From Terriglobia bacterium (GTDB taxonomy: Bacteria > Acidobacteriota > Terriglobia > UBA7540): a stretch of DNA of 18,965 nucleotides. Below are positions 713 through 18,965 of the stretch, in pieces (the stretch's first letter is position 1; every line of letters starts with the position of its first letter). Location of the stretch: contig JBHGBD010000048.1 in NCBI GenBank assembly GCA_041946825.1, forward strand, positions 1-18,965, in the 5' to 3' direction. The position numbers were made by a program, and so were the translations under genes. The notes beneath the pieces are model-generated. The model was given only the letters and a program-made list of their open reading frames with translations. It searched no databases and was not told where the DNA came from.

Positions 713-1036
713 CTATCTGGTCGCGATCTCGGAATTGATTCTGACCACTTTGTTCAATTGCTCGATTTGCGACTTCAGTTCCCGGATTTGCGCCTGCTGC
801 TCTTTCACCGCCTCAACGAGCAGCGCCGTGAGTCGCGCATAGTCCACGGATTTGGCGTCCACGCCGTTCGCTTCATAGGTTACAACTTCGGGAACGACTT
901 CACCCACCTCCTCGGCAATCAATCCGATGTTGTGTTGGCCGTCGGCTTTTGCATCATATGTCACGCCGCGCAGCCGCTCCACGGTTGAGAGCGCCGCGTG
1001 GATCGTTTGTATGTTTGTCTTCCAGCGCCGGGAGCT
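713..1036 (-). other. Peptidase S74 / intramolecular chaperone auto-cleaving domain. The predicted cleavage Ser lies in SSRRWK at about 1034-1036
   Basis: Motif alignment by eye to the S-D-x-R-x-K ... IGxIAQEV ... VDYxxLxxLLVEAIKEL consensus of endosialidase and T5 L-shaped tail-fibre C-terminal domains. Confidence 0.7.
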
Positions 1037-7000: not shown

Positions 7001-7291
7001 GTAGCGGCCCTGCTCATCGAGTTGGATGACCTGGGCTTCATTCCATAGCGCCGTGCCGCCTTGCGGCTCTTCATAAACTGAAAACGTGAGCCGCACAGCA
7101 ACGTTGCCGATCGGTTCGCCGTTGCGATCTCTTACCACGCCGTTGAACTGGATCAACCGCGGCACTGGCGCGACGGAGGTTTGGCTGGTCTCGGCCGTCG
7201 GCTCCGACTGCGCGATCGCCGTAAATGGAAGACCGACCGCCAACAGCAGAAGAATGAATGTCATCCGGAAGACACGTGTAGGGCGACGCAT
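713..7291 (-). CDS. Giant secreted fibrous protein (~2192 aa), phage tail-fibre/tailspike-like. It has Hep_Hag/YadA-head-like 14-residue repeats and a C-terminal intramolecular chaperone (Peptidase S74) domain
   Basis: The ORF 713..7342 is uninterrupted. I place the start at the ATG at 7291 because GGAGGTG sits 5 nt upstream (plus-strand complement cacctcc, 7297-7303). A classic signal peptide follows: MRRPTRVFRMTFILLLLAVGLPFTAIA|QSEP. The C-terminus reads ...YSSRRWKTNIQ...HNIGLIAEEVGEVVPEVV...VDYARLTALLVEAVKEQQAQIRELKSQIEQLNK, which matches the endosialidase CIMCD / S74 consensus (S-x-R-x-K dyad) plus a terminal coiled coil. There are many repeats of the form xTVxGGxxNxAxG and five copies of F(S/F)G(D/N)G(S/A)GL(T/V)N. 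Confidence 0.85.
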   Translation of the reverse strand: MRRPTRVFRMTFILLLLAVGLPFTAIAQSEPTAETSQTSVAPVPRLIQFNGVVRDRNGEPIGNVAVRLTFSVYEEPQGGTALWNEAQVIQLDEQGRYTVLLGATANTGVPVELFPAGKARWLGVQVENRDEDPRVLMVSVPYALKAEDAAKLGGKRASDFVLAEQLEQKVRTAVAVLMPAQTTAASTGKALAAAPAAAGGGAPKTTPATSFADTTTNQVVSVQQNGTGDALSAIVVSPTSGKAAVRGQATAVSGQTFGVHGASTSATGTGIFGYASSISTTAIPVGVGGQVNSATGVAGSFLTTDTNGKILSGRSGVAPGTEMFSVDGGGNVRANSYLDLNGFPTGTGGTVTSIMTGPGLTGGPIRTTGRLDLNTGYTDARYSQLVHTHPVGDVTGVATLGTNLFVGNQTVTGNLSLTGAISSNGLRIDTTADGPNILAGSSANYIAPGLHTVTISGGGEVLYPNRVTDVTSTIGGGAGNQAGDDAGTLDDACCATVAGGVFNKANAGGSTIGGGVNNIAAGPGWTSATIGGGDGNKASAWADTVAGGAGNTAKGGASTVAGGSGNTAGNWADSVGGGDQNIADGVFATVPGGFKNTAGFSSFAAGNRAKATSGGSFVWGDQTDADVTDAGWNSFVARATGGFRFITGVDASGTPLTAVNFESGSANLTTPGNVSAASFSGDGSGLTNIPSGALAFAPADLGGTNNFTADQSISGNLSVTGSINGGLVIQGSDPYGANFIAGTSGNYVVPDVQGAAIGGGGNAGLGFNRVTDDFSTVAGGVNNQAGDNAESADNAAFATVGGGADNTASGAKSTVAGGNHNEANSNDSTVGGGEHNLAGAYAATVPGGSYNQALGEHSFAAGYHAKAIEVGTFVWGDRSTDDDVSSTGNNQFVVRAQGGGFFSNDLMVGGTVAASGFSGDGSGLTNIPSGALAFAPAVLGGTNNFSGDQSISGNLTTTGQAGIGTLTPQRALDIRGSNPQIRLGGGGPNGIEFMEEDESGVGLSLLYRVAPQYMSIDRNGESLFTVLKSNGNVGVGTGAPGERLHVDGGSLRVNPDGTDYPQFVTGLNVNMDMPHGRAGLALHTAQGGIAYFGYSSPQLDQKDMVVLGTDNQQNDIGFFSNLDSVQGEDNLNISTKDPIMLIKGTGNVGIGTTAPTEKLEVAGNLKISGDGTGLIFPDGTTQTTASTGGGTATGLNCTDCVVDQQLGINYAGSGTKNGPATSALTALDATNAQMLGGQPATSFAQLTATNTFTGDQSISGNLDLTGTLRGQSDIQILNPSGTFRQLNFISSENKSMSLFFANDHGVVQTDPGTVAPLIFRTDGKDRMYIWTEGTISVPGSITAGSFSGDGSGLTGITTAATAANAEHATTAQTAETANTAQTATSALSANEALNAAALGNVPAATYARLDVGNDFNGKQGMYGNTDSEVLKVDQNGSGAALIAQQLNTDGVNAIRATNVSNSPAIYAVSSGNGSGVDGTSPTFGVRGMTDGPTGTGVYGEAHDTTGTTIGVKGHVESPAGVAGLFVNQQGGKILSGATGEGEKFRVEGSGNVWAAGGISAPSFTGSFSGNGAGLTNLNISNIPDAVTQGQLATEVGTLQAADSAESTARSGADITLQSNLNAEAVLRTNADTALQAAIDLRATTQGDNAFTGTQTVNGNLRVSGSINNALVFQSGYDSPNIIGGMSGNYVRWAYGGATIGGGGSATSGANRVTDDYGTVAGGADNEAGSNNDVFGDGAYAAVGGGQHNAASGRVSTVPGGEFNIAEGEGSLAAGFRARAIHNKTFVWSDGSRGEFSSSQPYTFNVSAIGGAFFSDDLHAGHFFGDGSGLVNVPVGTANNVNCTGCVSAAELNFTPAMPADVTTEASARQAGDTAEIGARTSADTALDLAKVSKVGDTMTGTLNLPSNGLTAGTDQLVLAGDKVGVGTASPVEKFQVAGGNALFDNALVVRKGVCIGPNCQAPQGVGESYFVVPGCTGTEYSSNYSDSHLGTWDGGGMLDMTTTGFILNQVLSRRNPGGACITPTAYSGFPDTIVLYRVMRDSVNLSSGDFVVPGNVAIGISNASNILTVKQASATDPIADAWTTYSSRRWKTNIQTIHAALSTVERLRGVTYDAKADGQHNIGLIAEEVGEVVPEVVTYEANGVDAKSVDYARLTALLVEAVKEQQAQIRELKSQIEQLNKVVRINSEIATR
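4479..4537. repeat. 59-bp exact intragenic direct repeat, copy 2
   Basis: Identical to 5194-5252 (within +-1 nt). A third partial copy, cgtcagccccgagccgtcgccgg, is at about 3228-3255. Confidence 0.8.
5194..5252. repeat. 59-bp exact intragenic direct repeat, copy 1 (encodes GDGSGLTNIPSGALAFAPA)
   Basis: cggcgggagcgaacgccagcgcgccgctggggatattcgtcagccccgagccgtcgccg is identical at 4479-4537. Each copy is embedded in a roughly 715-bp diverged tandem module. Confidence 0.8.
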
Positions 7292-7296
7292 GGAAT

Positions 7297-7303
7297 CACC
7301 TCC
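7297..7303 (-). promoter_or_regulatory. Shine-Dalgarno GGAGGTG for the giant gene
   Basis: The reverse complement of 7292-7310 is cagtcttGGAGGTGattcc, followed by ATG. Confidence 0.5.
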
Positions 7304-7746
7304 AAGACTGTCAGGCAGCGCGAGTGATAACGCTGGGCACACTTCTGTCTCGCTTGGAGCGAGTTTGATTCACACCGTGCAGTTCACCTGCCATACCGCA
7401 AACTGGTTGCAGGAGAATGTCACAGTGCTGGAATTGTCGCATCGCAGTTAGTATTGTGAGGTTGAGGAAAGACCGATAGCTCTTGGAGCAGGAAGCCTGG
7501 ATTTGGGCGAGTTGCCCTAGTGGAACTCATGGAGCAGTGTGCCTCAAACTGCAACTTAAGATGAAACGTTTTGCGACTGGGTGTTTACGGATGTCATATC
7601 ACTCTACTTACTAAGGATGGAACCAAGGGGCCCGATACGGATCGCCATCACTCAACGAGCGAGAGTCTCTTGCGATTTGTATATTCCCCCGAGCATTATC
7701 TCAACAGATATCATGCTGAATCTTTAGATTATCCATTCGACTCTTA

Positions 7747-7761
7747 GTGACATTGTGTCAC
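7747..7761. promoter_or_regulatory. Perfect palindrome GTGACA-TTG-TGTCAC, a candidate operator
   Basis: Read directly. It is a 6-3-6 inverted repeat in the non-coding spacer. Confidence 0.3.
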
Positions 7762-8285
7762 ATCGACTTTGAGTCCGCGGGTTCGAAGGGAGACGTTAGG
7801 TGATTGTGGATTTGGCCGAGCCAGATCGCGCCCTAGAAAGATGCGACGCAAGTGAAGTACTCCGCTGCTCGCTTTCGCGCTGCGCGAAGTTCCGCCACGG
7901 ACTGAGATGGGATTTCGGTTCGATGTTGCGGAGATGACCTTCACAGTCGGATTTGTGAGCTTGTGCCTTGGGAGGGCGGCGCCCCGAAAGGATGCTCGAT
8001 CGGTTTGGAATTAGAATTCGGTGAAAATCAGGCGTCTGCATTCCATCGACGTCTCTCGCCCGATATATTGTGATCGGCGCAGCCGAATACGCACACCGAA
8101 GTAACGAACTCGTCGCATTACTCGCCGGTGGTGCACACAGCTGGGAGATTTCCTGTTGCGTTTCGTGTCCGTTCGGACCGGAAGCAAGTAAACCACCCGG
8201 CATTTACCGCCAACCCTTCCAGTAGTAGCACCAGAACCTTCACCAGCACAACCATGGTCCCAGGACGAGTTGTGGCGATCGTCAC

Positions 8286-8293
8286 GGGGGGGG
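8286..8293. repeat. G8 homopolymer tract in the non-coding spacer
   Basis: gtcacggggggggcaac. This is a potential slipped-strand site. Confidence 0.4.
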
Positions 8294-8498
8294 CAACAGG
8301 TGCTCGATTTCTGTTCGGGTTGTGTGGTAGGGCCGGGAGGGATCACGCTCAGAAAGTCACGCCGGGACCGAAACCCTAACCCCGTTTCCATTGCCATCCT
8401 GACATCTGACCTACTCCGCCGCCACCAATAGAGAAGGGTCACATGGAATTCTCGGGGATGCCCCGGGAGGGCAAATCTTCTCATCCCAAGTGTCCTCA

Positions 8499-9371
8499 TT
8501 ATGAGAGCCGATGGGCGACTACCGTCATTACGGCGTCCCGCAGTTCAGTGCCCGGCATCAACCGCTGGCTCCACCGCGCGTACCACGTGAAGTAGTAGTT
8601 CATGCAGTCGGGGCTGTACTCCGGAATCAGCCCGTCAGGTCGGGTGGAACGAATGATATCCTTTGGATCTTTGCCAACGGGGATCTGCCAAAGCTCCGGC
8701 GCCTCGTGCCGCATGTCCCACCACCGCGCTCCGTACGGCCCCCAGCGGAGTTCATTAATGAGCTGCTCTCTATAACCATCAGATAGGTCCAAGGATTCGA
8801 TCCATTCCATCGTCGCCGCCACCAGTACGTCGATATATCTCGTGCGCTCTTGCTGGTCTGACTCCAAGCGTTCTTGGTGCTCGCGAACCCTTCTGGCGCC
8901 GCCTATTTTGAGCGCCTGCCGGCAACTGAGCCTTCCCTGCTGAATCAGCAGCTTCTCATCCTTGGTCAGCTCATTCAGCCGCAGGTATTGGCGGACGAGA
9001 CCCTCGGAACAGCCAAGCGCCTTCGCCAACGCTCGTCGCGAATGGCCGGCCTCGGTGAGCAGCGCCAGGCGCAGGCTACGTTCGGATGCTGAAAGGTGGG
9101 CCCATTCGACCCGAAGTTGCTCGATTTCGGCTTCATCCCCGATATCCAGAGGGCGCAGATCATCGCTGACCGTTCGGCCGATTGCCGCACCTGGTGCAGC
9201 GTTCCCCGCAGGCGCGCCAGAGGGCTCGTTCGCCATTTCGCGATGCGCTTGGCAATTAACACCAGACCCAGCGCTACTTCCCGGCGGAGGAGTGGTGGAC
9301 TCCCCCCGCTCGGGCATATCGCACGAACTGGCGCCAGCGTAGGCTGCGCTCGGCGAAGGCCGCCTGCCCAT
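8499..9371 (-). CDS. ParB/KorB-like helix-turn-helix DNA-binding protein with a C-terminal domain of unknown function
   Basis: The ORF 8499..9533 opens with TTG. The first ATGs are at 9371 and 9236 and neither has an SD, so the start is uncertain. The HTH segment HSRRALAKALGCSEGLVRQYLRLNELTKDEKLLIQQGRLS resembles the ParB/Spo0J pattern (LAxxLGxSxxxVxxxLRLLxLxxEVxxLIxxGxLS). The first 50-100 residues are low-complexity (S/P/G-rich). The stop overlaps the next downstream frame as TAATG. Confidence 0.5.
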   Translation of the reverse strand: MGRRPSPSAAYAGASSCDMPERGESTTPPPGSSAGSGVNCQAHREMANEPSGAPAGNAAPGAAIGRTVSDDLRPLDIGDEAEIEQLRVEWAHLSASERSLRLALLTEAGHSRRALAKALGCSEGLVRQYLRLNELTKDEKLLIQQGRLSCRQALKIGGARRVREHQERLESDQQERTRYIDVLVAATMEWIESLDLSDGYREQLINELRWGPYGARWWDMRHEAPELWQIPVGKDPKDIIRSTRPDGLIPEYSPDCMNYYFTWYARWSQRLMPGTELRDAVMTVVAHRLS

Positions 9372-9627
9372 GGACGCGGACGAAGGCTCGCTTGGCACGC
9401 TTACGGATTCGTTCGAGCTTGCGAAGGAGCCGCCCCGCTGCTGCCCCGTGATTGAGTAGCCAGCTTCGAATATGCCGGTGGCGAACGAGCTTGGTCGTGA
9501 CGCGCACCGCCAAGATACAGGCTGCCAGATCAAAGGCGCTCATACTTAGGCGGTGAAGAGGACCTTCCTTGGAGGAAAGACGAGCATGAAGGTCAACCAC
9601 GAAACCGGTGCTCGCGGAAGGCTGCCC

Positions 9628-9676
9628 CGAATTCGTAAACCGTAGGTCGGGGGTTCGATTCCCTTCGCCGGCTCCA
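9628..9676 (+). tRNA. tRNA-like 3' partial, Thr(CGU)-like. It has the anticodon loop TTCGTAA, a variable loop, the T-arm GGGGG-TTCGATT-CCCTT, the acceptor 3' strand CGCCGGC, discriminator T and CCA, but no canonical 5' half. It is a probable att-site remnant or tRNA pseudogene
   Basis: By coincidence the coordinate 96NN equals the standard tRNA position NN. T54-T55-C56-G57-A58 sit at 9654-9658, G53 and C61 are present, and CCA is at 9674-9676. The 5' acceptor strand (9601-9607, gaaaccg) pairs at only 3 of 7 positions, and the D and anticodon stems are broken. The intact part is the roughly 45-nt segment that tyrosine integrases typically duplicate. Confidence 0.4.
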
Positions 9677-9798
9677 ACCTTTCATCTCGACTTTCTAATC
9701 CAAAGGCTCGTGCGCGGGGTTCCCGGCTTTGAGGATTCGCCCTCAACCCTGGGGAGGACACCGGGCATCCGATTTGACTTGGGATTTCCGCGGAAACC

Positions 9799-10077
9799 TC
9801 AGGGTGCGGGCGTGGTAGCTGTAGGCGAGACGGAGCCTTCCTGGGGTTCCTTGAGCTCCCGGTCGTAGGCCTTGCGCGATCGCGGATTACTCAGGACTCT
9901 GTAAGCCTCGGTGATTTCTCGGAAGCGGTTTCCTTCAACCCCAGGGGTCACGTCGGGATGATATTTCTTGACCAACTCCCGAAAACGTTGGCGAATTGCT
10001 GTTCCGGTAGCATTGGCTGGGACACCGAGGAGTTCGTAATGCGTGTACTTCGGCGTTGCCGCCCTGCGCTCCACCAA
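9799..10077 (-). CDS. Small stand-alone J-domain (DnaJ-like, HPD motif) protein, about 92 aa
   Basis: KYTHYELLGVPANATGTAIRQRFRELVKKYHPDVTPGVEGNRFREITEAYRVLSNPRSRKAYDRE is a canonical J domain. The ORF stays open up to 10323. However a strong SD, GGAGGAA (complement at 10084-10090), sits 6 nt before the TTG at 10077 and 9 nt before the GTG at 10074. The stretch upstream of these uses many rare A/T-ending codons. I therefore prefer the short form. GC3 is lower than in the neighbouring genes. Confidence 0.55.
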   Translation of the reverse strand: MVERRAATPKYTHYELLGVPANATGTAIRQRFRELVKKYHPDVTPGVEGNRFREITEAYRVLSNPRSRKAYDRELKEPQEGSVSPTATTPAP

Positions 10078-10083
10078 GAACTG

Positions 10084-10090
10084 TTCCTCC
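10084..10090 (-). promoter_or_regulatory. Shine-Dalgarno GGAGGAA for the J-domain gene
   Basis: The plus strand reads ttcctcc, and TTG/GTG follows on the minus strand. Confidence 0.45.
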
Positions 10091-10512
10091 CCACCGTGAC
10101 CTCTATCCGCGAATGCCCGAAGCCAGGCAGCCGACACGGCATGGCACAAACTTGCCCAAGCCGTATGGCTATGTCGAAAGTTAGTGGGTATATGCAAAAA
10201 AGTCAAGGAAAGAGACGACATGGACTGCGAAGTCCCAACTGCAAATCCTGAGTCGACAGCGCTCTTAAGCAGCCTTGAGTTTAACACTCGATACACATCT
10301 TTCCCTACCCCCAGATCTTTCATCGAGACCTTTCTTGGCCCTCGGAATTTATCGCTCGCGCCTGCAATTCAAGCCTCAGTGCAATTAGCGGATCGACCTC
10401 GGTCGCCCGGCGGTGAACTTGGTCCCCGACCCAAATGGTGTGCTCGGCGTCAGATCCGGCCTCCCTCGTGCTACCCCTTGCGCTTCCCTGCCCGATGCGG
10501 TTTGATAGGGGC

Positions 10513-11688
10513 ATGAAAATCACATGGACTTCCGCGCTACTCCTTGTCCCGTTAGTCACCCAGTTTGATTTAATCTCTGCCGGGCAACTGTCCGCCAAGC
10601 CGCCGGCCAAGGGGAAATATCTCGTCTACATTGGAACCTACACCGGCCAATACAGCAAAGGGATATACGCCTACGAGTTCGAATCGCGTAATGGCCAACT
10701 GAAGCGGCTCGGGTTAGTGGGGGAGACGCCGAACCCTTCCTATCTGGCCATCCACCCCAGCCAACCGTTTCTGTACGCCGTGAACGAAGTGGACAACTAC
10801 GAAGGCAAGAAAGCCGGCTCGATCACTGCATTCGCTTTCGATGCCAGGTCGGGGAAGCTCACCTTGCTCAATGCAAAATCGACACGCGACGCGGATCCAT
10901 GTTATGTGACGGTCGACAAAACCGGGAGATACGCCCTGGTCGCGAATTACGGCGGCGGCAACGTGGCGGCGATTCCGATCGGCAAGGACGGCCGCCTGGG
11001 CGAGGCGTCTGCATTCATCCAGCACACCGGCCACGGCACCAACCCGGAGCGCCAGGAAGGCCCGCACGCACATTCCATCAACCTCTCGCCCGATAACCGT
11101 TTCGCGGTCGCGGCGGACCTCGGACTGGACGAGTTGCTCGTTTACCGCTTCGACCCGACGAACGGCTCCCTTATACCCAATGATCCTCCCTTCGCCAAAG
11201 TCCAACCGGGCGCCGGGCCGCGTCATTTCGATTTTCATCCTCGCGGCAAATTCGCCTACGCCATCTGCGAGATGGGATCCATTATCACCGCGTTTGCCTA
11301 CGACGCGGCGGCCGGAACATTGCAGGAATTGCAGACGATTTCGACCCTACCCAAAGACTACGCGGGCAGCAACGACGATGCCGACATTCATGTGCACCCT
11401 TCCGGCAGGTTTCTCTACGGGTCCAATCGAGGCCACGACAGCATCGCGGTGTTCGCGATCGATCCCGACAAAGGCACGCTGACGCTTGTCGAGCATGTCT
11501 CGACACAGGGCAAAACCCCGCGCAATTTCGGGATCGATCCTTCAGGAAGTTACCTATTCGCTGCCAACCAGGATTCTGACAACATCGTCGTCTTTCACAT
11601 CGATTCCAAAAGCGGGCGCCTGACCCCAACCGGCCAGACAATCGAAGTCCCTTCGCCGGTATGCGTGAAGTTCGCGGCGGCGGAATAG
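10513..11688 (+). CDS. Secreted lactonase-family 7-bladed beta-propeller protein (6-phosphogluconolactonase / 3-carboxymuconate cyclase-like)
   Basis: The ATG at 10513 starts a signal peptide, MKITWTSALLLVPLVTQFDLISA. The sequence repeats the YxxxxxG..P..xxxHPSGRFLY(xN) blade motifs, for example LAIHPSQPFLYAVNE, VDKTGRYALVANY, LSPDNRFAVAADLG, FHPRGKFAYAICE, VHPSGRFLYGSNRG and IDPSGSYLFAANQ. Confidence 0.8.
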   Translation: MKITWTSALLLVPLVTQFDLISAGQLSAKPPAKGKYLVYIGTYTGQYSKGIYAYEFESRNGQLKRLGLVGETPNPSYLAIHPSQPFLYAVNEVDNYEGKKAGSITAFAFDARSGKLTLLNAKSTRDADPCYVTVDKTGRYALVANYGGGNVAAIPIGKDGRLGEASAFIQHTGHGTNPERQEGPHAHSINLSPDNRFAVAADLGLDELLVYRFDPTNGSLIPNDPPFAKVQPGAGPRHFDFHPRGKFAYAICEMGSIITAFAYDAAAGTLQELQTISTLPKDYAGSNDDADIHVHPSGRFLYGSNRGHDSIAVFAIDPDKGTLTLVEHVSTQGKTPRNFGIDPSGSYLFAANQDSDNIVVFHIDSKSGRLTPTGQTIEVPSPVCVKFAAAE

Positions 11689-12125
11689 CGGAATACTTGG
11701 GTTGTCGGTTGTGAGTTCTTAGCTGAGGCTGTTTGACACAGGTTTTCAGCTCGCGATTCGCAACCCTCACCATCGGCGGCTGGCCCCCACGAGCGGTTCG
11801 TGATTCATCCCCCCGCCCTTCGGCGCCCCCGCCATTTGCTTCCGGTTTCTTGCTTCCCTCTCTCGCCTCAAACTCATCATTCCCATAAGAATTTCCGATT
11901 TCCATCCCCCGGGAAACGGGCGCAGTTGTGCATCCACAAAGTCGTTGGGAGCGCTCAAGGATTTGCCCTTATGGTCATACCATTTCCTCGATGGAGCAGC
12001 CGTGCCAGTGCCAACGTGCAACTGGGGTCTGAGTGCCAGGCGATCGGCATTCGGTTGTTGATGTTTGGGGCTGGTCAAGCGGCAACGAGCAGCGCTGACC
12101 CCGGAGTATCGAATCCGCTCTTTAA

Positions 12126-12218: not shown

Positions 12219-13790
12219 ATGCGCATATTATCAACCAGGAATTTCACCTTACTGCTGAGCATGCTGGCGCTCATGGCGCCAAGCACCCTCGCGGAGGTCA
12301 AGCTCCCGGCGTTTTTTAGTGACAACATGGTTTTGCAGAGCAGCGCTAAAGACCTGGTCTGGGGCACGGCTGAGCCGGGCGAACAAGTGACCGTATCGAT
12401 CGCGGGCCAGAAGGCCACGGCGGCCGCCGACAGTCAGGGCCGGTGGAGGGTCGAGATAGGGCCGCTCAAGCCCGGCGGCCCCTTGGAGATGACGATCGCT
12501 GGAAGAAATTCCATCACGATTCACAACATCGCGGTCGGCGAAATCTGGATCTGTTCCGGCCAGTCGAACATGGAAATGGCCGTGGGCAACAGCCCGCGCG
12601 CCTGGGGCGGCGTCATGAACTCCGCGCAGGAAATCGCGGCGGGCAATTTCCCGATGATCCGGCAATTCATGGTCAAGCACGCGGTGGCTGGCCGGCCGCA
12701 ATCCGACGTGCAAGGCCAATGGCTGGTCGCAAGCCCGCAGACTGTGGGCGAGTTTACGGCCGTGGGATACTTCTTCGGCCGCGATCTGCACAAGGCCCTC
12801 GGCGTTCCCATCGGCCTGATTCACACTTCCTGGGGCGGGACACCTGCCGAGGCCTGGACGCGAACTTCCACCCTTTCCGCCGATCCTGACCTGGCCTCGA
12901 TGGTCGCCGACTGGTCGCACAAGATTTCCGAATATCCCAGCCTGCTCAGGAAATTCCGCGAGGATTTCGATCAGTGGGAACCGGCCGCGAGCGCCGCCGA
13001 GAGCGAGGGCAAAATTGCGCCAAGACCCCCGCAATTCCCGGAAGATCCCAGGAGCAACCCGTGGCGCGCCGGCGGGCTCTCGAACGCCATGATTGCGCCG
13101 CTCATTCCCTACCGCATCGCCGGAGCGATCTGGTACCAAGGCGAGTCGAACGCCGACCGCGCCTATCAGTACCGCAAGCTTTTCCCCGCCATGATTCAGG
13201 ACTGGCGACAAGCCTGGGACGAAGGCGATTTTCCTTTCCTCTTCGTGCAACTCGCGAATTTCGTGCAGGACGACGGGCCCCCGACTTCCTGGGCGGAATT
13301 GCGCGAGGCGCAGTCCATGGCGTGGTCGCTGCCCAATACTGGCATGGCGACGGCTGTCGACATCGGCAATCCCTACGACATCCATCCCAAAAACAAGCAG
13401 GAAGTGGGCCGCCGCCTGGCGCTGGCCGCGGAAGCCATCGCCTATGGCAGGAAGGTCGTCTATGCCGGACCCATCTATGGATCAATGAAAGTGGAGGGCA
13501 GCGCCATTCGCGTGACCTTCAAGCACGTGTCCGGCGGGCTGGTCGCTAAGGGCGGCACCACAGCGCTCAAAAGTTTCGAAATTGCCGGCGAAGACCGCAA
13601 GTTCGCTCCGGCCGAAGCGACAATCTCGGGCAGGGATGTAGTCGTACGAAGCGCGCAAGTTCCCCGCCCGGTCGCCGTCCGTTACGCGTGGGCAGATGAT
13701 CCCGAGTGCAGCCTGTATGGCAAGAGTGGCTTGCCGGCGTATCCGTTCCGCACCGATAATTGGCCGGGAGTGACGGAGGGAAAGAAGTAG
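12219..13790 (+). CDS. Secreted SASA-domain carbohydrate esterase (sialate 9-O-acetylesterase family, SGNH-like)
   Basis: The SD GAGGAGA at 12208-12214 precedes the ATG at 12219. The signal peptide is MRILSTRNFTLLLSMLALMAPSTLA|E. The hallmark GQSNM motif appears in GEIWICSGQSNMEMAV, a later WYQGESN block follows, and the length of about 520 aa is typical of SASA-domain esterases. Confidence 0.8.
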   Translation: MRILSTRNFTLLLSMLALMAPSTLAEVKLPAFFSDNMVLQSSAKDLVWGTAEPGEQVTVSIAGQKATAAADSQGRWRVEIGPLKPGGPLEMTIAGRNSITIHNIAVGEIWICSGQSNMEMAVGNSPRAWGGVMNSAQEIAAGNFPMIRQFMVKHAVAGRPQSDVQGQWLVASPQTVGEFTAVGYFFGRDLHKALGVPIGLIHTSWGGTPAEAWTRTSTLSADPDLASMVADWSHKISEYPSLLRKFREDFDQWEPAASAAESEGKIAPRPPQFPEDPRSNPWRAGGLSNAMIAPLIPYRIAGAIWYQGESNADRAYQYRKLFPAMIQDWRQAWDEGDFPFLFVQLANFVQDDGPPTSWAELREAQSMAWSLPNTGMATAVDIGNPYDIHPKNKQEVGRRLALAAEAIAYGRKVVYAGPIYGSMKVEGSAIRVTFKHVSGGLVAKGGTTALKSFEIAGEDRKFAPAEATISGRDVVVRSAQVPRPVAVRYAWADDPECSLYGKSGLPAYPFRTDNWPGVTEGKK

Positions 13791-13791
13791 T

Positions 13792-13808
13792 CAGTCGTCA
13801 GTTGCCAG
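13792..13808. repeat. CAGTCGTCAGTTGCCAG. This is one copy of the recurrent CTGGCAAC-TGACRACTG element family (minus-strand sense), in the 3' region between the convergent esterase and MgtC genes
   Basis: Read directly. It shares GTCAGTTGCCAG with 15168-15179 and 15734-15752. Confidence 0.6.
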
Positions 13809-13843
13809 TACGCGCGGGCAAATTTGCGGTTTCGTGGATTTCC

Positions 13844-13868
13844 CCGTCTACCGTATGCCGTCTACCGT
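13844..13868. repeat. Tandem CCGTCTACCGT x2 (plus a degenerate third copy, GCCGTTTACCGG) in the convergent intergenic region
   Basis: ccccgtctaccgtatgccgtctaccgtctcc. Confidence 0.5.
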
Positions 13869-13882
13869 CTCCTGCTTGCCGT

Positions 13883-15142
13883 TTACCGGCTCGCCGCCAC
13901 CAGACAAGACGCAAGGGTCACGATGAATAGCGCGAGGAAAATCGGCGCGATCACCGGGCGTAGCGGCTTGCCGCCGATCACGACGGCGATGCCGCCCTTG
14001 ACCAGCGTATTCATCGCGCAGGCGAGTAGGATGGAAGCGTTGGCGGTCGAGGGCACGAGGACATTCTCGCGTGCCAGGCGCGCCATGGAGACGGTGATAG
14101 CATCCACGTCGGTCAAGCCGGCAAGCGCGCTGGCGATATAAACACCTGCCGAGCCAAAATAATGGTGCGCCGCGGTGGCCACAAAGAGCACGACGGCGAA
14201 CAGCAAGGCGAACTTCAAGGCTTGGCCGAGGTCCATCGGGTTCTTTACTTTCAATTGCGCCTCACCCTCGGCAGCTTTGCTTCTCCATAGATAGACCGCA
14301 ACTCCCACGCCCACCAGCGCGGGCATGCCAATCAACCACACCAGAGCCTGGGCGAGCGATGGGTAAATCACGAGTGCCAGGAACCAGACGCGAAAATACA
14401 TGATGGTCGAGGCGATCACGAGCCCAAGCGCAAAGTAGCGAGCCATGGCCGCCTCGGCTTCGCGTGCCTTCTCCGACAGGCCAAAGGTCACCGCCGTGCT
14501 CGAAGCGAGCCCACCCAGAAATCCGGTTACAGCGATTCCCTGCCGCGCCCCCATGAAGCGCATCAGGACGTAACCCAGCATGCTGACGGCGGAGATAAGG
14601 ACCACCATCCACCAAACCAGACGCGGGTTGAGTACCTCAAACGGCCCAAAGGCGCGGTCGGGCAGAAGCGGCAACACGATGACCGTTACGATCGCGAACT
14701 TCAGGATGGCGTACATCTCCTCTTCCTGGATCTTCTCCGCCAGTTGGTGCAGCGGAGCTTTCATGGAGAGGAGGAGCGTCGTAACGACGGCAAAGATGGC
14801 GGCCGGGATCAAATAGTCGAACGCCGCGAGCGCTCCCAACACAAACGTGAGGATGGCGACGAGCTCCGTCGTCGCACCCTTGTGTTGGCCTTGCGCGGTG
14901 ACGTAATACGCGGCGACGGCCACCGCCGCGACGCCGGCCAGCGCCACCGGCAGGACCCACGGGACTCCGGCGCGCGCCATCAGCGCCGAAAGGAATCCGG
15001 TCAAGGCAACGACGGGAAAAGTGCGGAAGCCCGCGAAAAGCGGCTCATCCTCTTTCTGCGAGTGCTGCCGCTCGAGGCCAATCAGCAGGCCCATCAGCAG
15101 CACCATGGCGCCATTCTGGGCGATTTGCAGGATGCTGGGCAT
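13883..15142 (-). CDS. MgtC/SapB-family membrane protein with a C-terminal DUF4010-type polytopic domain
   Basis: The N-terminus MPSILQIAQNGAMVLLMGLLIGLERQ carries the MgtC signature (LIGLER). About 10 further hydrophobic segments follow. It is the last gene of the minus-strand flotillin operon. Confidence 0.75.
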   Translation of the reverse strand: MPSILQIAQNGAMVLLMGLLIGLERQHSQKEDEPLFAGFRTFPVVALTGFLSALMARAGVPWVLPVALAGVAAVAVAAYYVTAQGQHKGATTELVAILTFVLGALAAFDYLIPAAIFAVVTTLLLSMKAPLHQLAEKIQEEEMYAILKFAIVTVIVLPLLPDRAFGPFEVLNPRLVWWMVVLISAVSMLGYVLMRFMGARQGIAVTGFLGGLASSTAVTFGLSEKAREAEAAMARYFALGLVIASTIMYFRVWFLALVIYPSLAQALVWLIGMPALVGVGVAVYLWRSKAAEGEAQLKVKNPMDLGQALKFALLFAVVLFVATAAHHYFGSAGVYIASALAGLTDVDAITVSMARLARENVLVPSTANASILLACAMNTLVKGGIAVVIGGKPLRPVIAPIFLALFIVTLASCLVAASR

Positions 15143-15150
15143 GGAAGGGC

Positions 15151-15179
15151 GGTTGTCAATAGGCAGTTGTCAGTTGCCA
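15151..15179. repeat. GTTGTCA-ataggca-GTTGTCA-GTTGCCA. This is a CTGGCAACTGACAACTG-family element immediately upstream of the MgtC start. On the minus strand it also contains TTGACA
   Basis: Read directly. Confidence 0.6.
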
Positions 15180-15199
15180 GAAACGAATGGTTTCTTCCG

Positions 15200-15225
15200 G
15201 CTTCTTACTTCCAGCTTCTCACTTC
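15200..15225. repeat. Direct repeat CTTCTTACTTCC-ag-CTTCTCACTTCC in the MgtC leader / CA 3' region
   Basis: Read directly. Confidence 0.5.
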
Positions 15226-15230
15226 CTTCT

Positions 15231-15256
15231 GTCCACTGTTCACTATTCACTGTCCA
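15231..15256. promoter_or_regulatory. TCCACTGTTCAC-tat-TCACTGTCCACT. It holds the 12-mer shared with the esterase upstream region, duplicated, about 90-115 nt upstream of the MgtC start
   Basis: It is an exact 12-mer match to 12126-12137. At the esterase site the motif is on the same strand as the gene, whereas at the MgtC site it is on the opposite strand. Confidence 0.4.
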
Positions 15257-15262
15257 CTCTGC

Positions 15263-15721
15263 TCACACCGGCTCAACAATGACCCGGTCCGACGAATCCC
15301 AACCGGCGTAGTAGAGATCCACGCGCATATCGGGAAATTCTTTGTTCAATACCGTTCTCGCGCGGTGCAGATCCTCCTCTTGGCGGCGCCTCGGGTCCGA
15401 TGTCGTGTGTAAATGCAGCGGCAACTCTTTGTACCAGCCGCAATCCTGGTGCGCAATCAAGATCAGGCGCTTCAACTCGTGGGCATCAACGAGAAAGCGA
15501 AACCACTTCATCCCCGCCCAGGAGAACTTGGGCAGGTATTCGACCAACGTCAGGCATTGCGGCCCGCCGGGGAGCACGAGCAAGTCGTAGTTGCTGCGGA
15601 GATTCAGACCTTGGTTCAAGAAGTCCTGCAGCCCGGCCACGAAGCGGTGGTCGCTGCAATGGACGACCAGCACGTCCGTGTGGGCGTGCTCGACTTTCGA
15701 AGAGGAAGTATATGCAGGCAT
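15263..15721 (-). CDS. Small beta-class carbonic-anhydrase-like protein (152 aa) with CxDxR and HxxCG zinc-ligand motifs
   Basis: VVHCSDHRF matches C-x-D-x-R and IAHQDCGWY matches H-x-x-C-G, with spacing compatible with short Cab-type beta-CAs. It sits in the operon between the flotillin and MgtC genes. Confidence 0.5.
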   Translation of the reverse strand: MPAYTSSSKVEHAHTDVLVVHCSDHRFVAGLQDFLNQGLNLRSNYDLLVLPGGPQCLTLVEYLPKFSWAGMKWFRFLVDAHELKRLILIAHQDCGWYKELPLHLHTTSDPRRRQEEDLHRARTVLNKEFPDMRVDLYYAGWDSSDRVIVEPV

Positions 15722-15728
15722 GGATGTT

Positions 15729-15756
15729 CAGTTGTCAGTTGCCAGTTGCCAGACGC
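15729..15756. repeat. Tandem heptads CAGTTGT-CAGTTGC-CAGTTGC-CAGACGC (CTGGCAACTGGCAACTGACAACTG on the minus strand) between the flotillin stop and the CA start
   Basis: Read directly. Confidence 0.6.
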
Positions 15757-15793
15757 CAGCTATCACTCCCGGAGATTGGAGTCAAAGTTTCCG

Positions 15794-17383
15794 TTACTCT
15801 GCCTTCTTCGCTTTGGCTGCTGGCAGCTCGCCGGGAGTCTTTGCTGCCTCCACAGCTTTGCTCCCATTGGCTGCGCCAAGTTGCGCAAGCACGGTCGGGA
15901 TATCGAGCCCCAGCGCCTGCAGTTGCTGGAGAAGGCTAAACACGAGCGCCGGGCCGGTCTTGGCGATGCGCCCGATGCCGCCCGTGCCGTCGCCCGTGGC
16001 GCCGTTGCCCTGCTCGATGACGACGACCTTGTCAATATTCCCGAGCGGCGCGGCCACGGCGCCAAAGATGCCCGCCGAGGATTGCAGCACGCTCGGCAGC
16101 TTCTCCAGGATTGTCTGAAGTTTGGCCGCGTCGTTGAATTGTTTCCAGGCCTCGGCCTTCTTCAGGATGGCCTGAGCTTCCGCCACACCTTGCGCCTCAA
16201 TGGCGCGCGCCTGCGCCAAGCCCATCGCCTCGATCTTCGCGGCCTCGGCGCGGCCTTCGGCTTCGACGGCCGCGGCCCGGCCCAAGCCCTCCGCCTTCAG
16301 TTTTTCCTGCTGAGCCTGGGCCATGGCGATTTGCGCCGCCTTCTGCCCGTCAGCTTCGAGAATCGCCGCCTGCTTCTTAGCCTCGGCGCGGACAATGGCC
16401 GCCAGTCGCTCGGCCTCCGCTGCCTTCACCACCGAGGCTTCGAGTTCTTTCTGCTTGCGCATCACTTCCTGTTCCTGGACGCCGATCTGCTCCAATGTCC
16501 GGGTCTTCTCGATGCGCACTTCCTCCGCCACCACACTCTGACGGGCCTTGGCATCGGCCTGAGGACCGGCTTGCGCGGCCTTCGCCTTTTCGATCTCAAT
16601 TTCCGCCTGGTAGGCCGCCTGTTTCACCTGGAAGTCGCGCTGCGCGGCGGCGATGTTCGCGTCGGCGTCAAACTTGGCTTTCTCGCCTTCCTGCATGGCC
16701 AGCGCGGACTTGATCTTGGCGTCGCGCATGGCTTCGGCTTCGCCGATGGTGCCGTCGCGCTTGACCTCGGCCGTACGCTTCTTGCCCAGCGCATCGAGGT
16801 AGCCTTCCTCATCGCTGATGTCCTGAATCGTCAGCACGTCCACGCCGATGCCCATGCGCTCCAGGTCCACGGCAGCTTCCGACGTCAGTTTCTGGGCAAA
16901 GCTCTGCCGGTCGCTGTTGACCTCTTCCACGGTCAACGTGCCGAGAATCGAGCGCAGGTGCCCTTCCAGCGTCTGGAAGATGACGCGCTGAATCTGGTCG
17001 TGAGTCATCGCCAGGAAGCGCTCAGCGGCGGCGGCCAGCGAAACGTCGTCGCCTTTAATCTTGACGTTGGCGACGGCCTTGACCGAAATCGGCACACCCT
17101 TGAGCGTGTAGGCGCGCTTGATTTCGAGGGGAATTGTGAAGACGTTCAGAGAAAGGTAATCGACCTTTTCGAGTAGCGGCCAGCGGAAACTTGCGCCGCC
17201 CTTTACCATCCGGTAGCCGACGATCCGGCCATCCGGCAGCTTGCGCTTTCGCCCGCTGAAGATCGCGACCACGTTGGGCGGGACTTTCAGGTAGTTCTTG
17301 CCAAACAGCGCCATCGCCACGATCAGCGCCAGAACCACGAGCATTACGACTATTGGAATAAGGTATTGTTCGAGTGCTTCCAT
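15794..17383 (-). CDS. Flotillin (SPFH/Band-7 domain, FloT/YqiK-like), 529 aa
   Basis: An N-terminal TM helix is followed by an SPFH core (LSLNVFTIPLEIKRAYTLKGVPISVKAVANVKIKGD...). Long EA-rich coiled-coil repeats follow (AEAERLAAIVRAEAKKQAAILEADGQKAAQIAMAQAQQEKLKAEGL), then a glycine-rich tail. The SD GGAGGAA is 4-5 nt before the ATG. Confidence 0.9.
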   Translation of the reverse strand: MEALEQYLIPIVVMLVVLALIVAMALFGKNYLKVPPNVVAIFSGRKRKLPDGRIVGYRMVKGGASFRWPLLEKVDYLSLNVFTIPLEIKRAYTLKGVPISVKAVANVKIKGDDVSLAAAAERFLAMTHDQIQRVIFQTLEGHLRSILGTLTVEEVNSDRQSFAQKLTSEAAVDLERMGIGVDVLTIQDISDEEGYLDALGKKRTAEVKRDGTIGEAEAMRDAKIKSALAMQEGEKAKFDADANIAAAQRDFQVKQAAYQAEIEIEKAKAAQAGPQADAKARQSVVAEEVRIEKTRTLEQIGVQEQEVMRKQKELEASVVKAAEAERLAAIVRAEAKKQAAILEADGQKAAQIAMAQAQQEKLKAEGLGRAAAVEAEGRAEAAKIEAMGLAQARAIEAQGVAEAQAILKKAEAWKQFNDAAKLQTILEKLPSVLQSSAGIFGAVAAPLGNIDKVVVIEQGNGATGDGTGGIGRIAKTGPALVFSLLQQLQALGLDIPTVLAQLGAANGSKAVEAAKTPGELPAAKAKKAE

Positions 17384-17410
17384 GACTTCCTCCGCTGACT
17401 TTGGCTCCCG

Positions 17411-17418
17411 GTTGCCAG
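17411..17418. repeat. GTTGCCAG (CTGGCAAC on the operon strand) copy in the nfeD-flotillin spacer
   Basis: cccggttgccagcagcc. Five copies of this 8-mer lie on the same strand, all in spacers of the minus-strand operon. The chance expectation for the window is about 0.3 per strand. Confidence 0.5.
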
Positions 17419-17512
17419 CAGCCCGTTCCGAGTCGCGCCTGGGGAGTGTTCCTCAGACCAACGCGCGTTGCCGTACCTCTGCCTCTTTCCTCCGGCCTTC
17501 GATTTTCGCTTC

Positions 17513-18058
17513 TTAACTCTTCCTCACAATCATCGTATCTCCGACGACCGCTTCGATTTTGACGAGGGCGTTGGAAGCAATCTCCTCGCCGTCAACGGAG
17601 CGCGCGATCTTCTCAACAACGCTCTCACCCAACTGGCAGCGCACCTGGCCGAGGCCGCCTTTGGGTATGGTCACGGACACGCTGGCCGTACCGCCGATCA
17701 AGTCGCTGACGTGCACCTCGCTCGATGCTTCCTGGCCGTGCAGAAACCTTACGAATACATAGACTATCCCGCCGAAGACAAAGCCGCTGGCCAGGCCCAT
17801 TGCGGTACTGACACCGATACCAAAGCCGGAATGGATCCCGATGGCGCCAAAGCCGCCGAACGCCGTAACGAATACACTGAGAATCCGTCCGCTCAGGAAA
17901 CTCGGACCTCCTCCATGCGTGTCAACATCGTGGTCGCCGAACCAATCCCCGAAATCGAAGATCTCTCCGGCGACGAAGCTGACAACCAAAACGAGGAATC
18001 CAATGGCCGCCAGGCCAAGGAACACACCAAAGGCGGAGAACGAAGCGAGGATGAACAT
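17513..18058 (-). CDS. NfeD-family short membrane protein (YuaF/YqiJ-like), the flotillin partner
   Basis: N-terminal TM helices are followed by a C-terminal OB-fold-like segment (GTASVSVTIPKGGLGQVRCQLGESVVEKIARSVDGEEIASNALVKIEAVVGDTMIVRK). It lies immediately upstream of the flotillin gene, which is the canonical nfeD-flotillin order. The SD GGGGGAGG is upstream. Confidence 0.8.
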   Translation of the reverse strand: MFILASFSAFGVFLGLAAIGFLVLVVSFVAGEIFDFGDWFGDHDVDTHGGGPSFLSGRILSVFVTAFGGFGAIGIHSGFGIGVSTAMGLASGFVFGGIVYVFVRFLHGQEASSEVHVSDLIGGTASVSVTIPKGGLGQVRCQLGESVVEKIARSVDGEEIASNALVKIEAVVGDTMIVRKS

Positions 18059-18190
18059 GGGCCGAAGCCTCCCCCAGAGCGAGGGCGCCGGTCTTGCAGG
18101 CGGCTAACCCGCAGTGCGGACGAAGGTAACTCCAGGCGGCGCTTACTCTAAAGCCCCAATTGACCGAAGTCAAGGAGGTGTCGCAAAGTA

Positions 18191-18218
18191 GACAGTCGGC
18201 AGTCGACAGTCGAAAGTT
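18191..18218. repeat. Tandem heptads GACAGTC-GGCAGTC-GACAGTC-GAAAGTT in the divergent nfeD/VOC promoter region
   Basis: Read directly. It is related to the CAGT[TC]G heptads of the operon spacers. Confidence 0.55.
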
Positions 18219-18380
18219 GAATGCTGGAAAGCGCGCCGCCCCACGCGAGGGCATGAATTGCATGGCGACGCGACAACGGGACACGAAGGCCGTGGACGGC
18301 TGAGGGCGGTGGCCGACAACCATCAATTCACGACGAACGACTGACAATCTGATTGGAGCGCAAACCGCTTGGAGGAAACC

Positions 18381-18893: not shown

Positions 18894-18965
<72 letters not shown>

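Follow-up and report, generated by a model that had tools for sequence, protein, structure and literature searches.

The octamer CTGGCAAC, which recurs in the spacers of a four-gene operon of a Terriglobia metagenome-assembled genome (MAG), probably marks short intergenic arrays of 7-nt units (heptads) that belong to a dispersed repeat class with the general form NNNACTG or, in the reverse sense, CAGTNNN; on this reading the arrays most likely serve as leaders of the genes that they precede, and no regulator specific to the operon is involved. The operon lies on the minus strand of the stretch analyzed here (the window), which is 18,965 bp long and is an entire contig, and it encodes in order a weakly NfeD-like protein, a flotillin, a CA-like protein and an MgtC-type membrane protein. 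The repeat class is already known, and this locus is an ordinary, partly decayed instance of it. What is new are soil Acidobacteriota, Planctomycetota and phages as carriers, the shared ACTG core, and a quantified rule of arm order and polarity. Nothing here implies a regulator dedicated to the flotillin-MgtC operon, which removes a tempting wrong inference. Heptamer repeats date back to 1990 in the literature, but to our knowledge no account of their function or origin has gained acceptance.

Heptad arrays in the operon spacers

The octamer occurs exactly five times in the window, on the minus strand only (13801–13808, 15173–15180, 15738–15745, 15745–15752, and 17411–17418), and all five copies lie outside long open reading frames (ORFs). 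An earlier note on this DNA had claimed five minus-strand copies confined to intergenic spacers, among them a tandem pair between flotillin and the CA gene, a copy between nfeD and flotillin, and a copy 3′ of mgtC (at 13801, 74 nt past the mgtC stop), and all of this is borne out; the copy before mgtC is also present, although it had been placed one nucleotide too low, at 15172–15179. Among 200 shuffled windows, the mean count is 0.73 and the highest 3, short of the 5 observed. Although the motif is short and its one-mismatch matches on the plus strand (1412, 8399, 8919, and 10581) are at chance level, the probability that chance or plain oligonucleotide bias accounts for the pattern is negligible in view of the shuffled windows, the lag-7 signal, the in-phase extension of 88 of 128 matches in other genomes, and the depletion from coding sequence described below.

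Rather than a site of its own, the octamer represents a single register of a tandemly repeated 7-nt unit, CTGRCAA (CAACTGR in the equivalent register), embedded in spacer DNA that is itself structured in heptads. Four of the five copies sit in three short tandem arrays. In a lag scan of the window only period 7 (with 14) stands out. Lag-7 identity reaches 0.40 in the pooled operon spacers, whereas other lags, coding sequence, and the remaining non-coding DNA of the window stay at ∼0.25. The spacers contain further arrays with other units, at 18187–18217, 15229–15258, and 13844–13870, which are detected by Tandem Repeats Finder (TRF).

All arrays of the operon are given here as read on its coding (minus) strand. 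The tandem pair of octamers between flotillin and the CA gene belongs to a forward array of the units CTGGCAA, CTGGCAA, CTGACAA, and CTGAACA (15725–15760; lag scan, and TRF at 15729–15752 with period 7, 3.4 copies, and 94% matches), the last ACTG of which stands 7 nt ahead of the CA-like ATG with no Shine-Dalgarno sequence. The spacer between CA and mgtC opens 4 nt past the CA stop codon with a reverse-type array, (CAGTGRA) x4.3 (15229–15258; TRF period 7 and lag scan), continues with a period-14 repeat, GGAAGTGAGAAGCT x2.4 (15194–15226; TRF, 89% matches), which is a degenerate AGAAGNN heptad tract lying between the reverse and forward arrays, and closes with a forward array of CTGGCAA, CTGACAA, CTGCCTA, and TTGACAA (15152–15180; TRF period 7, 4.1 copies, 68% matches) that ends 9 nt ahead of the mgtC ATG, likewise with no Shine-Dalgarno sequence. 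The GGTTGTC heptad reported previously at 15151–15157 is the plus-strand reading of this last array. A further array, (GACGGTA) x3.9, lies 12 nt past the mgtC stop (13844–13870; TRF period 7) and is a CGGT variant of the reverse type; beyond it is a forward array of CTGGCAA, CTGACGA, and CTGACTA (13786–13810; lag scan and sequence), whose last unit supplies the TAG stop (13788–13790, plus strand) of the convergent SASA gene. The remaining octamer, at 17411–17418, is solitary, has no period-7 context in the window, and lies just 5′ of the flotillin Shine-Dalgarno sequence (GGAGGAAG).

One forward array, (CGACTGY) x4.4 (18187–18217; TRF period 7, 83% matches, and lag-7 scan), precedes the whole operon. 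A gap of 13 nt separates its end from the −35 box of a sigma-70-type promoter, TTGACT-17-TAGAGT (18145–18173, minus strand; consensus scan, 9 of 12 matches), that is invariant as CCTTGACTTC-N-TAGAGTA in seven Terriglobia relatives although its flanks have diverged. Because it lies upstream of the −35 box, this array is outside the operon mRNA made from that promoter.

The arrays of the window also flank the lactonase, SASA, and glyoxalase genes. Two reverse-type units, GGTTGTC and GGTTGTG (11700–11713, plus strand; identified in the sequence, and weak alone with two copies only), start 11 nt after the lactonase stop codon, where the earlier note had correctly seen heptads of this type. An 8-nt direct repeat, GCGGAATA x2 (11680–11695), overlaps the lactonase stop just before these units. 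Degenerate heptads (CAGATTG, TCAGTCG, TTCGTCG, and others) occupy 18320–18360 of the minus strand upstream of the divergent glyoxalase gene; on the sense strand of that gene they read GACAAC and CGACTGA ∼35 nt before the Shine-Dalgarno sequence, which fits the polarity described below, the repeat itself being weak.

The placement of the arrays bears on whether they could be contingency loci, in which slippage would switch or grade the expression of the downstream gene, as with the 7-bp repeats ahead of hmw1A in Haemophilus influenzae. Array copy number does differ among relatives, and arrays adjoin the promoter and the start codons; however, the window has no array within an ORF or separating the −35 from the −10 box, the gain or loss of 7 nt ahead of the last unit leaves the spacing to the ATG unchanged, the genes encode membrane proteins of a housekeeping type, and with 2–4 units the arrays are short. 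We therefore consider contingency loci a very unlikely explanation.

The same junctions in related operons

Nine related loci were compared with the window. In four of them (L121, L124, L169, and L170), with flotillins 92–94% identical, arrays occupy the same junctions and differ in units and copy numbers. Before CA there are three ACTG units in the window, three in L121, one in L124 (within a CTGANNN tract), and four in L169; before mgtC the corresponding numbers are two, four, three, and five. Before flotillin, L169 and L170 have five to six NNNACTG units at the position of the lone 17411 copy, which is a relic of an array because these two relatives keep an intact array there. The site upstream of the promoter holds CCAACTG x4 in L121 and NNNACTG x4 in L124, and no array in L122, L123, L126, or L127. 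The reverse array past the CA stop has equivalents in L121, L124, and L169. In these three loci, as in the window, neither CA nor mgtC is preceded by a Shine-Dalgarno sequence, and one extra heptad ending in TCC or TTCC lies between the last ACTG and the ATG of both genes.

A three-part layout of the spacer, with a CAGT-type array followed by an AGAAGNN or GTCAG-type tract and then an ACTG-type array, recurs among these loci (window, 15194–15226; L121, 2941–3034 and 8260–8410; L124, 3177–3313; L169, 2301–2411). The middle tract of L169 pairs with the forward arm in 5-bp steps.

Whether orthologous spacers carry the motif, a question posed by the earlier note, has an answer that divides with distance: among the closest relatives the orthologous spacers do carry arrays, but CTGGCAAC is absent from the orthologous operons at 86–90% flotillin identity (L122, L123, L126, and L127). 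L122, at 90%, has unrelated heptads (GAATAGY and AAGGACT) in the flotillin–CA spacer. No arrays are found in the operon of L126 or L127, L126 having one beside an unrelated gene, and none in the operon spacers of L123, in which arrays lie just upstream of the operon and elsewhere. Lag-7 identity of the spacers follows suit, at 0.40–0.49 in the window, L121, L124, and L122 and 0.24–0.26 in L123, L126, and L127, the latter range being also that of coding and other non-coding sequence. In L122, L123, L126, and L127 the CA and mgtC genes overlap by 1 nt (TGATG), so that there is no CA–mgtC spacer at all. In the clade of the window, 111–145 nt of heptads stand in place of the overlap, and the CA stop codon of the window lies two codons earlier than in the array-free relatives, inside the first degenerate repeat unit.

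The comparison shows that the arrays gain and lose units of 7 nt and also undergo point changes, that they have entered or expanded in every junction of the NfeD-like/flotillin/CA-like/MgtC operon of this Terriglobia lineage, and that they have created the spacer of 111–145 nt where the CA and mgtC genes of relatives overlap. The alternative offered in the earlier note, namely heptad spacers of variable length, is essentially what the comparison with relatives shows. The arrays thus represent a recent, lineage-restricted, and fast-changing invasion of the operon junctions, and such an invasion can remodel an operon fast, here turning a 1-nt overlap into a long spacer without a Shine-Dalgarno sequence.

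Two further observations concern these loci. In L122 (7574–7611) and L125 (1831–1864), AGAAGNN arrays enter the 3′ end of the flotillin ORF and encode part of its variable C-terminal tail. In L170, the contig end falls inside a heptad array (3425–3441); heptad arrays probably break short-read assemblies, which may account for the many contigs of 2–4 kb that carry this operon.

Dispersal, orientation and predicted folding

The 17-mer CTGGCAACTGACAACTG was scanned against one genome per species, which yielded at least 120 loci. The chance expectation for a 17-mer in 596 Gb is ∼70 matches by arithmetic estimate, but 88 of 128 matches carry at least two further in-phase ACTG units and are therefore true arrays despite that expectation. 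BLAST comparison of the window with 120 motif loci reveals no DNA homology, and those loci are therefore independent genes. Acidobacteriota account for 37 of the 80 listed titles, Planctomycetota for 13, Cyanobacteria or Melainabacteria for 6 (carriers including Anabaena, Tychonema, and Microcoleus), Chloroflexota for 4, and Bacteroidota for 3, and the remaining listed carriers include Chromatium, Desulfobacterota, Actinobacteriota, Sporomusa, Cloacimonadota, and Verrucomicrobiae. One Acidobacteriaceae MAG contributes three loci (L008, L027, and L028), and relatives of the window carry arrays at genes unrelated to the operon. The fetched loci have about one array per 4.4 kb, with 311 arrays of period 7 and 12 of period 8, and 109 of 292 arrays away from the seed match have an ACTG or CAGT core, as compared with ∼5% by chance. 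In viral contigs, the 20-mer of (CAACTGA)x3 occurs in 41 stretches, and one contig of 42.5 kb has many arrays. The possibility of a mere oligonucleotide bias, which the earlier note had raised, is answered by a three-fold depletion of the motif from coding interiors: a depth of 60 codons or more within any open frame is seen for 21% of the 17-mer matches and for 67% of random positions. Judged by the two refuting conditions set in the earlier note, the element thus holds up.

These findings bear directly on the proposal that CUGGCAAC is an operon-specific cis element through which a dedicated RNA-binding regulator or RNase sets the stoichiometry of the four proteins. The five copies are indeed all in the sense of the operon and all intergenic, and arrays are kept at the same junctions in the closest relatives. 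However, the same 17-mer stands beside unrelated genes in at least 11 phylum-level groups, with related arrays in phages, and the motif is absent from the orthologous operons at 86–90% identity, four of which have no CA–mgtC spacer. Units and copy numbers vary even among relatives at 92–94%, one array is shared with the convergent SASA stop, and the array at 18187–18217 precedes the operon promoter and is therefore unable to act in the mRNA of the operon. A regulator or processing site specific to this operon is thus highly improbable.

The arrays are strongly oriented with respect to genes. Orientation was counted with the arrays masked because their reverse sense, which has TTG starts and no stops, extends ORFs. 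In the 40 nt ahead of starts, the NNNACTG sense is seen in 49 arrays and the CAGTNNN sense in 7 (p = 7e-9); in the 40 nt past stops, the CAGTNNN sense is seen in 33 and the NNNACTG sense in 14 (p = 0.008). The window obeys this polarity, with forward arrays before CA, mgtC, and the operon promoter and reverse-type arrays after the CA, mgtC, and lactonase stops, and the array at 13786–13810 is of the reverse type relative to the SASA gene. A Shine-Dalgarno sequence is present at 10 of 40 array-preceded genes and 168 of 648 others, which is no difference, the control starts being poorly called (26% with a Shine-Dalgarno sequence).

Where two inverted arrays are adjacent, their order is 5′-CAGT...ACTG-3′ in all 38 cases (26:0 in genome loci and 12:0 in the first viral loci). 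This order reads identically on both strands, and the count needs no gene calls. In symmetric pattern scans of viral contigs, CAACTG-specific arms give 6 sites in the favored order and 0 in the reverse order, and arms of three generic units give at least 120 stretches (at least 245 sites) with CAGT first and 0 with the reverse. The viral hairpins, mostly situated between co-directional genes, take up the spacer: the median distances to the gene boundaries on either side are 8 and 9 nt. As an almost exceptionless and gene-call-independent regularity, the polarity rule provides a handle for experiments and for a search for the responsible protein, and it merits genome-wide study.

Some phage contigs (IMG/VR L197–L272 and others; GC ∼0.58–0.61) have a heptad-array hairpin in nearly every intergenic spacer, examples being L223 (11 sites in 11.5 kb), L237, L270, and L202. 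The typical phage form is (CAGTRAT)n-AAAGGCAAAA-(ATYACTG)n, with the CAGT arm always first.

The complementary inverted pairs are predicted to form long hairpins between genes, since all 38 pairs found elsewhere fold strongly in silico, with z-scores of −3.7 to −15. The spacers of the window fold no better than shuffled sequences (z of 0.02, −0.14, 0.27, and −1.47 for four spacers, the first being CA–mgtC and the second flotillin–CA), and the arms of the CA–mgtC spacer (CAGTGRA and CTGRCAA) match in the 4-nt core only. The same spacer folds marginally better than shuffles in L121, L124, and L169 (z of −2.3, −2.0, and −1.7). On these folding predictions, we read the CA–mgtC copy in the window as a diverged version of the hairpin layout. 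The CAACTGA repeat alone has no predicted self-structure, the minimum free energy of (CAACUGA)6 being 0.0 kcal/mol, whereas that of the CAACTGG repeat is −6.2. (CAACUGA)n contains no AUG, GUG, or UUG, has UGA in successive frames, and is poor in G; its complement, (UCAGUUG)n, has UUG every 7 nt and no stops.

Could the window arrays nonetheless be a working structured RNA? In that case a reverse arm past a stop would pair with the forward arm before the next start, either coupling translation, in that the terminating ribosome would melt the stem and free the next start, or forming an RNase III site or a stabilizing stem. In the CA–mgtC spacer, a reverse array, a spacer, and a forward array follow one another in the canonical layout, its counterparts in the three relatives have the negative z-scores given above, the 38 pairs and the at least 245 viral sites share the layout and span stop to start, and published work on hupS-hupL supports the idea (PMC2670836). 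Nevertheless, the window spacers have z-scores of 0.02, −0.14, and 0.27, their arms match only in the core, and the flotillin–CA spacer has a forward array only. A working structured RNA in the window is accordingly rather unlikely.

Alternatively, the arrays could be the arms of a small mobile palindromic element, similar to repetitive extragenic palindromic (REP) sequences and REPINs or to miniature inverted-repeat transposable elements, that is spread by a hairpin-specific enzyme, the single arrays of the window being decayed halves. Spread by an enzyme would explain the near-absolute arm order, and the many near-identical hairpins within single phage contigs, the abrupt appearance in one lineage at a junction where the genes otherwise overlap by 1 nt, and the patchy distribution across phyla point the same way. 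However, no target-site duplication, transposase, or RAYT-like gene turned up, none having been searched for; arm lengths that change in 7-nt steps and units that drift along a tract fit local slippage; and selection on mRNA also explains the arm order, because the favored arrangement reads the same on both strands. A mobile element is in our judgment quite improbable. Integron attC sites, the palindrome of which is bounded by 7-bp cores, were considered and rejected by reasoning, since their core order is opposite and their cores are single rather than in arrays.

A broader reading, for which we see some possibility while doubting it, is that the window arrays are decayed members of an undescribed cross-phylum class of polar hairpins, 5′-(CAGTNNN)n-loop-(NNNACTG)n-3′, extending from a stop to the next start. 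The near-absolute arm order and the shared ACTG core of this class would then be due to a single conserved molecular reader or writer that operates in steps of 7 nt, and not to independent slippage in each lineage. The carriers of such a class would be Acidobacteriota, Planctomycetota, Cyanobacteria, Chloroflexota, Bacteroidota, and many phages, and the reader or writer might be a hairpin-specific mobilizing enzyme or else an S1- or Csp-type protein that universally binds single strands.

The reading preferred here, that of dispersed heptad arrays acting as leaders, can be put as a sequence of steps. We infer that the arrays arise by slipped-strand mispairing, as has been proposed for heptanucleotide repeats generally (PMC4679880), and that selection on the mRNA maintains their polarity. 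In the window, where the diverged arms would form no hairpin, the arrays most likely serve as unstructured leaders without a Shine-Dalgarno sequence before CA and mgtC, and we favor a leader or insulator role that would have replaced the translational coupling of these two genes. Their influence on the initiation of translation is probably modest, with copy number as the tuning factor. An intergenic hairpin between arms that still match would act on coupling, stability, or processing, as has long been proposed for the cyanobacterial hairpins (PMC2670836). A general post-transcriptional role of the repeat class, through hairpins, RNase processing, or translation initiation, is possible.

Several points count against this preferred reading. 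Each functional step of the model is reasoned from sequence, and genome-wide dispersal in the source organism is extrapolated from relatives and other Acidobacteriota, the window being the whole contig. The loci were selected for the motif, which biases the spectrum of units toward CAACTGR, and a crude ORF caller supplied the gene boundaries of the 120 genome loci and of the viral loci. A role at the level of mRNA leaves the array upstream of the promoter unexplained. The low self-structure of CAACTGA is not exceptional, since 33% of heptads of the same composition are equally unstructured; for this reason, and because CAACTGG is structured, low self-structure was rejected as a sufficient explanation. 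Finally, the reverse order (CAACTG..CAGTTG) does exist, at 24 sites found with a pattern of two plus two units in a metagenome collection (L174–L196). Several of these sites duplicate a single locus, some amount to perfect palindromes of short length, and L185 is a reverse-forward-reverse triple. An absolute rule of arm order was dropped on account of these sites, and the rule is stated here as a very strong bias.

Other features of the window and related repeat systems

The first gene of the operon (17513–18058, minus strand; 181 aa) has no Pfam or NCBIfam match at E ≤ 0.001; the NfeD C-terminal domain scores E = 0.02, below the cut-off, and the position upstream of flotillin is conserved. 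Flotillin (15794–17383, minus strand; SPFH/Band_7) matches Pfam Band_7 (9e-27) and Flot, as well as NCBIfam FloT at 2.6e-97, which is below the equivalog cut-off, and a homology search shows its product to be identical to a protein recorded for a 'Terriglobia bacterium' (P0001). The CA-like gene (15263–15721, minus strand; 152 aa) has a weak match to Pro_CA_2 (PF20393, E = 3.4e-4), also below the cut-off, and the MgtC/DUF4010 membrane protein gene (13883–15142, minus strand) matches Pfam DUF4010 (1.1e-64) and MgtC (7.9e-19). The convergent SASA esterase gene and the lactonase gene are supported by Pfam SASA (2e-20) and Lactonase (2.5e-132), respectively. A scan for intrinsic terminators finds none in the operon spacers, its two sites both being inside ORFs as compared with 4.8 expected, and scans with Rfam 15 and for tRNAs find nothing in the spacers at the gathering threshold. 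The sole Rfam hit is the 3′ part of a tRNA gene (18897–18965, minus strand; RF00005, 29.3 bits) that is cut by the contig end and is not called by ARAGORN. A single ORF of 2209 aa (713–7342, minus strand) takes up one third of the contig. Positions 7342–10323 have lower GC (0.51–0.57), no long ORF, and no heptad arrays; this stretch adjoins ParB-HTH-like (8499–9533) and DnaJ-domain (9799–10323) ORFs and may be foreign DNA.

Within the library searched, no paper links heptamer repeats with Acidobacteria. Phase-variation heptads of the hmw1A type (PMC8262952, PMC12721329) form one long array each, at genes for surface proteins of pathogens adapted to a host, whereas the arrays here are short, polar, and located at many housekeeping-type junctions. 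REP sequences and REPINs (PMC3116915) are comparable in being short, dispersed, intergenic inverted repeats that form hairpins, with the doublet as the unit and singletons as decayed copies; they differ in that REP arms are not tandem heptads and REPINs depend on a RAYT transposase, so that the likeness is an analogy only. In the survey of Mrazek et al. (2007), as summarized in PMC4679880, units of 7 nt are the most abundant class of long repeats in many prokaryotic genomes, and slippage is proposed. That survey, in the summary, deals with a statistic of length classes, and the arrays here add a shared ACTG core and a polarity toward gene boundaries.

The next closest system is that of the short tandemly repeated repetitive (STRR) heptamers of Cyanobacteria, which are likewise 7-bp tandem repeats in non-coding DNA. 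The units that Mazel et al. reported in 1990 are said to be CCCCAGT (STRR1) and CAACAGT (STRR3), containing the CAGT/ACTG core. STRR repeats of 7 bp form hairpins between hupS and hupL, for which a role in transcript stability or translational coupling has been proposed (PMC2670836), and a preprint on Nostoc describes altered expression of recO and recF reporters upon deletion of heptamer repeats, the binding partner being unidentified (10.1101/2022.06.06.494920). STRR sequences differ from the present arrays in having been described for heterocystous cyanobacteria and in the sequences of their units, and the window arrays form no predicted hairpin.

The closest described system consists of the TAACTGA heptamers (MacGregor, 2015; PMC4679880), the unit of which is one base off CAACTGR and which are known from marine Beggiatoaceae, Thiocystis, Cyanobacteria, and Bacteroidetes. 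The two have in common a 7-nt unit in two to six copies, almost exclusively intergenic location, and a patchy phylogenetic distribution; a forward orientation a few nucleotides before starts, usually without a ribosome-binding site, with a minority pointing at stops; stop codons and no self-folding in the forward sense (Table 3 of PMC4679880); and 7-nt insertions or deletions between close strains. The exact TAACTGA unit is not found here, the window units being CAACTGR, CGACTGY, and others, with the AACTG/ACTG core in common. Further differences are the host, a member of the Acidobacteriota (Terriglobia) with ∼60% GC, the mixing of several unit variants in one array, the pairing of reverse and forward arrays in one spacer, whereas for the BOGUAY genome a single inverted repeat was reported, and the many NNNACTG variants that are repeated here, in contrast to the related heptamers that were found to be rarely repeated (PMC4679880). 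The window arrays nevertheless have the features that define intergenic tandem heptads as a class, namely head-to-tail 7-nt units in non-coding DNA, a forward orientation pointing at starts, and differences between relatives in steps of 7 nt.

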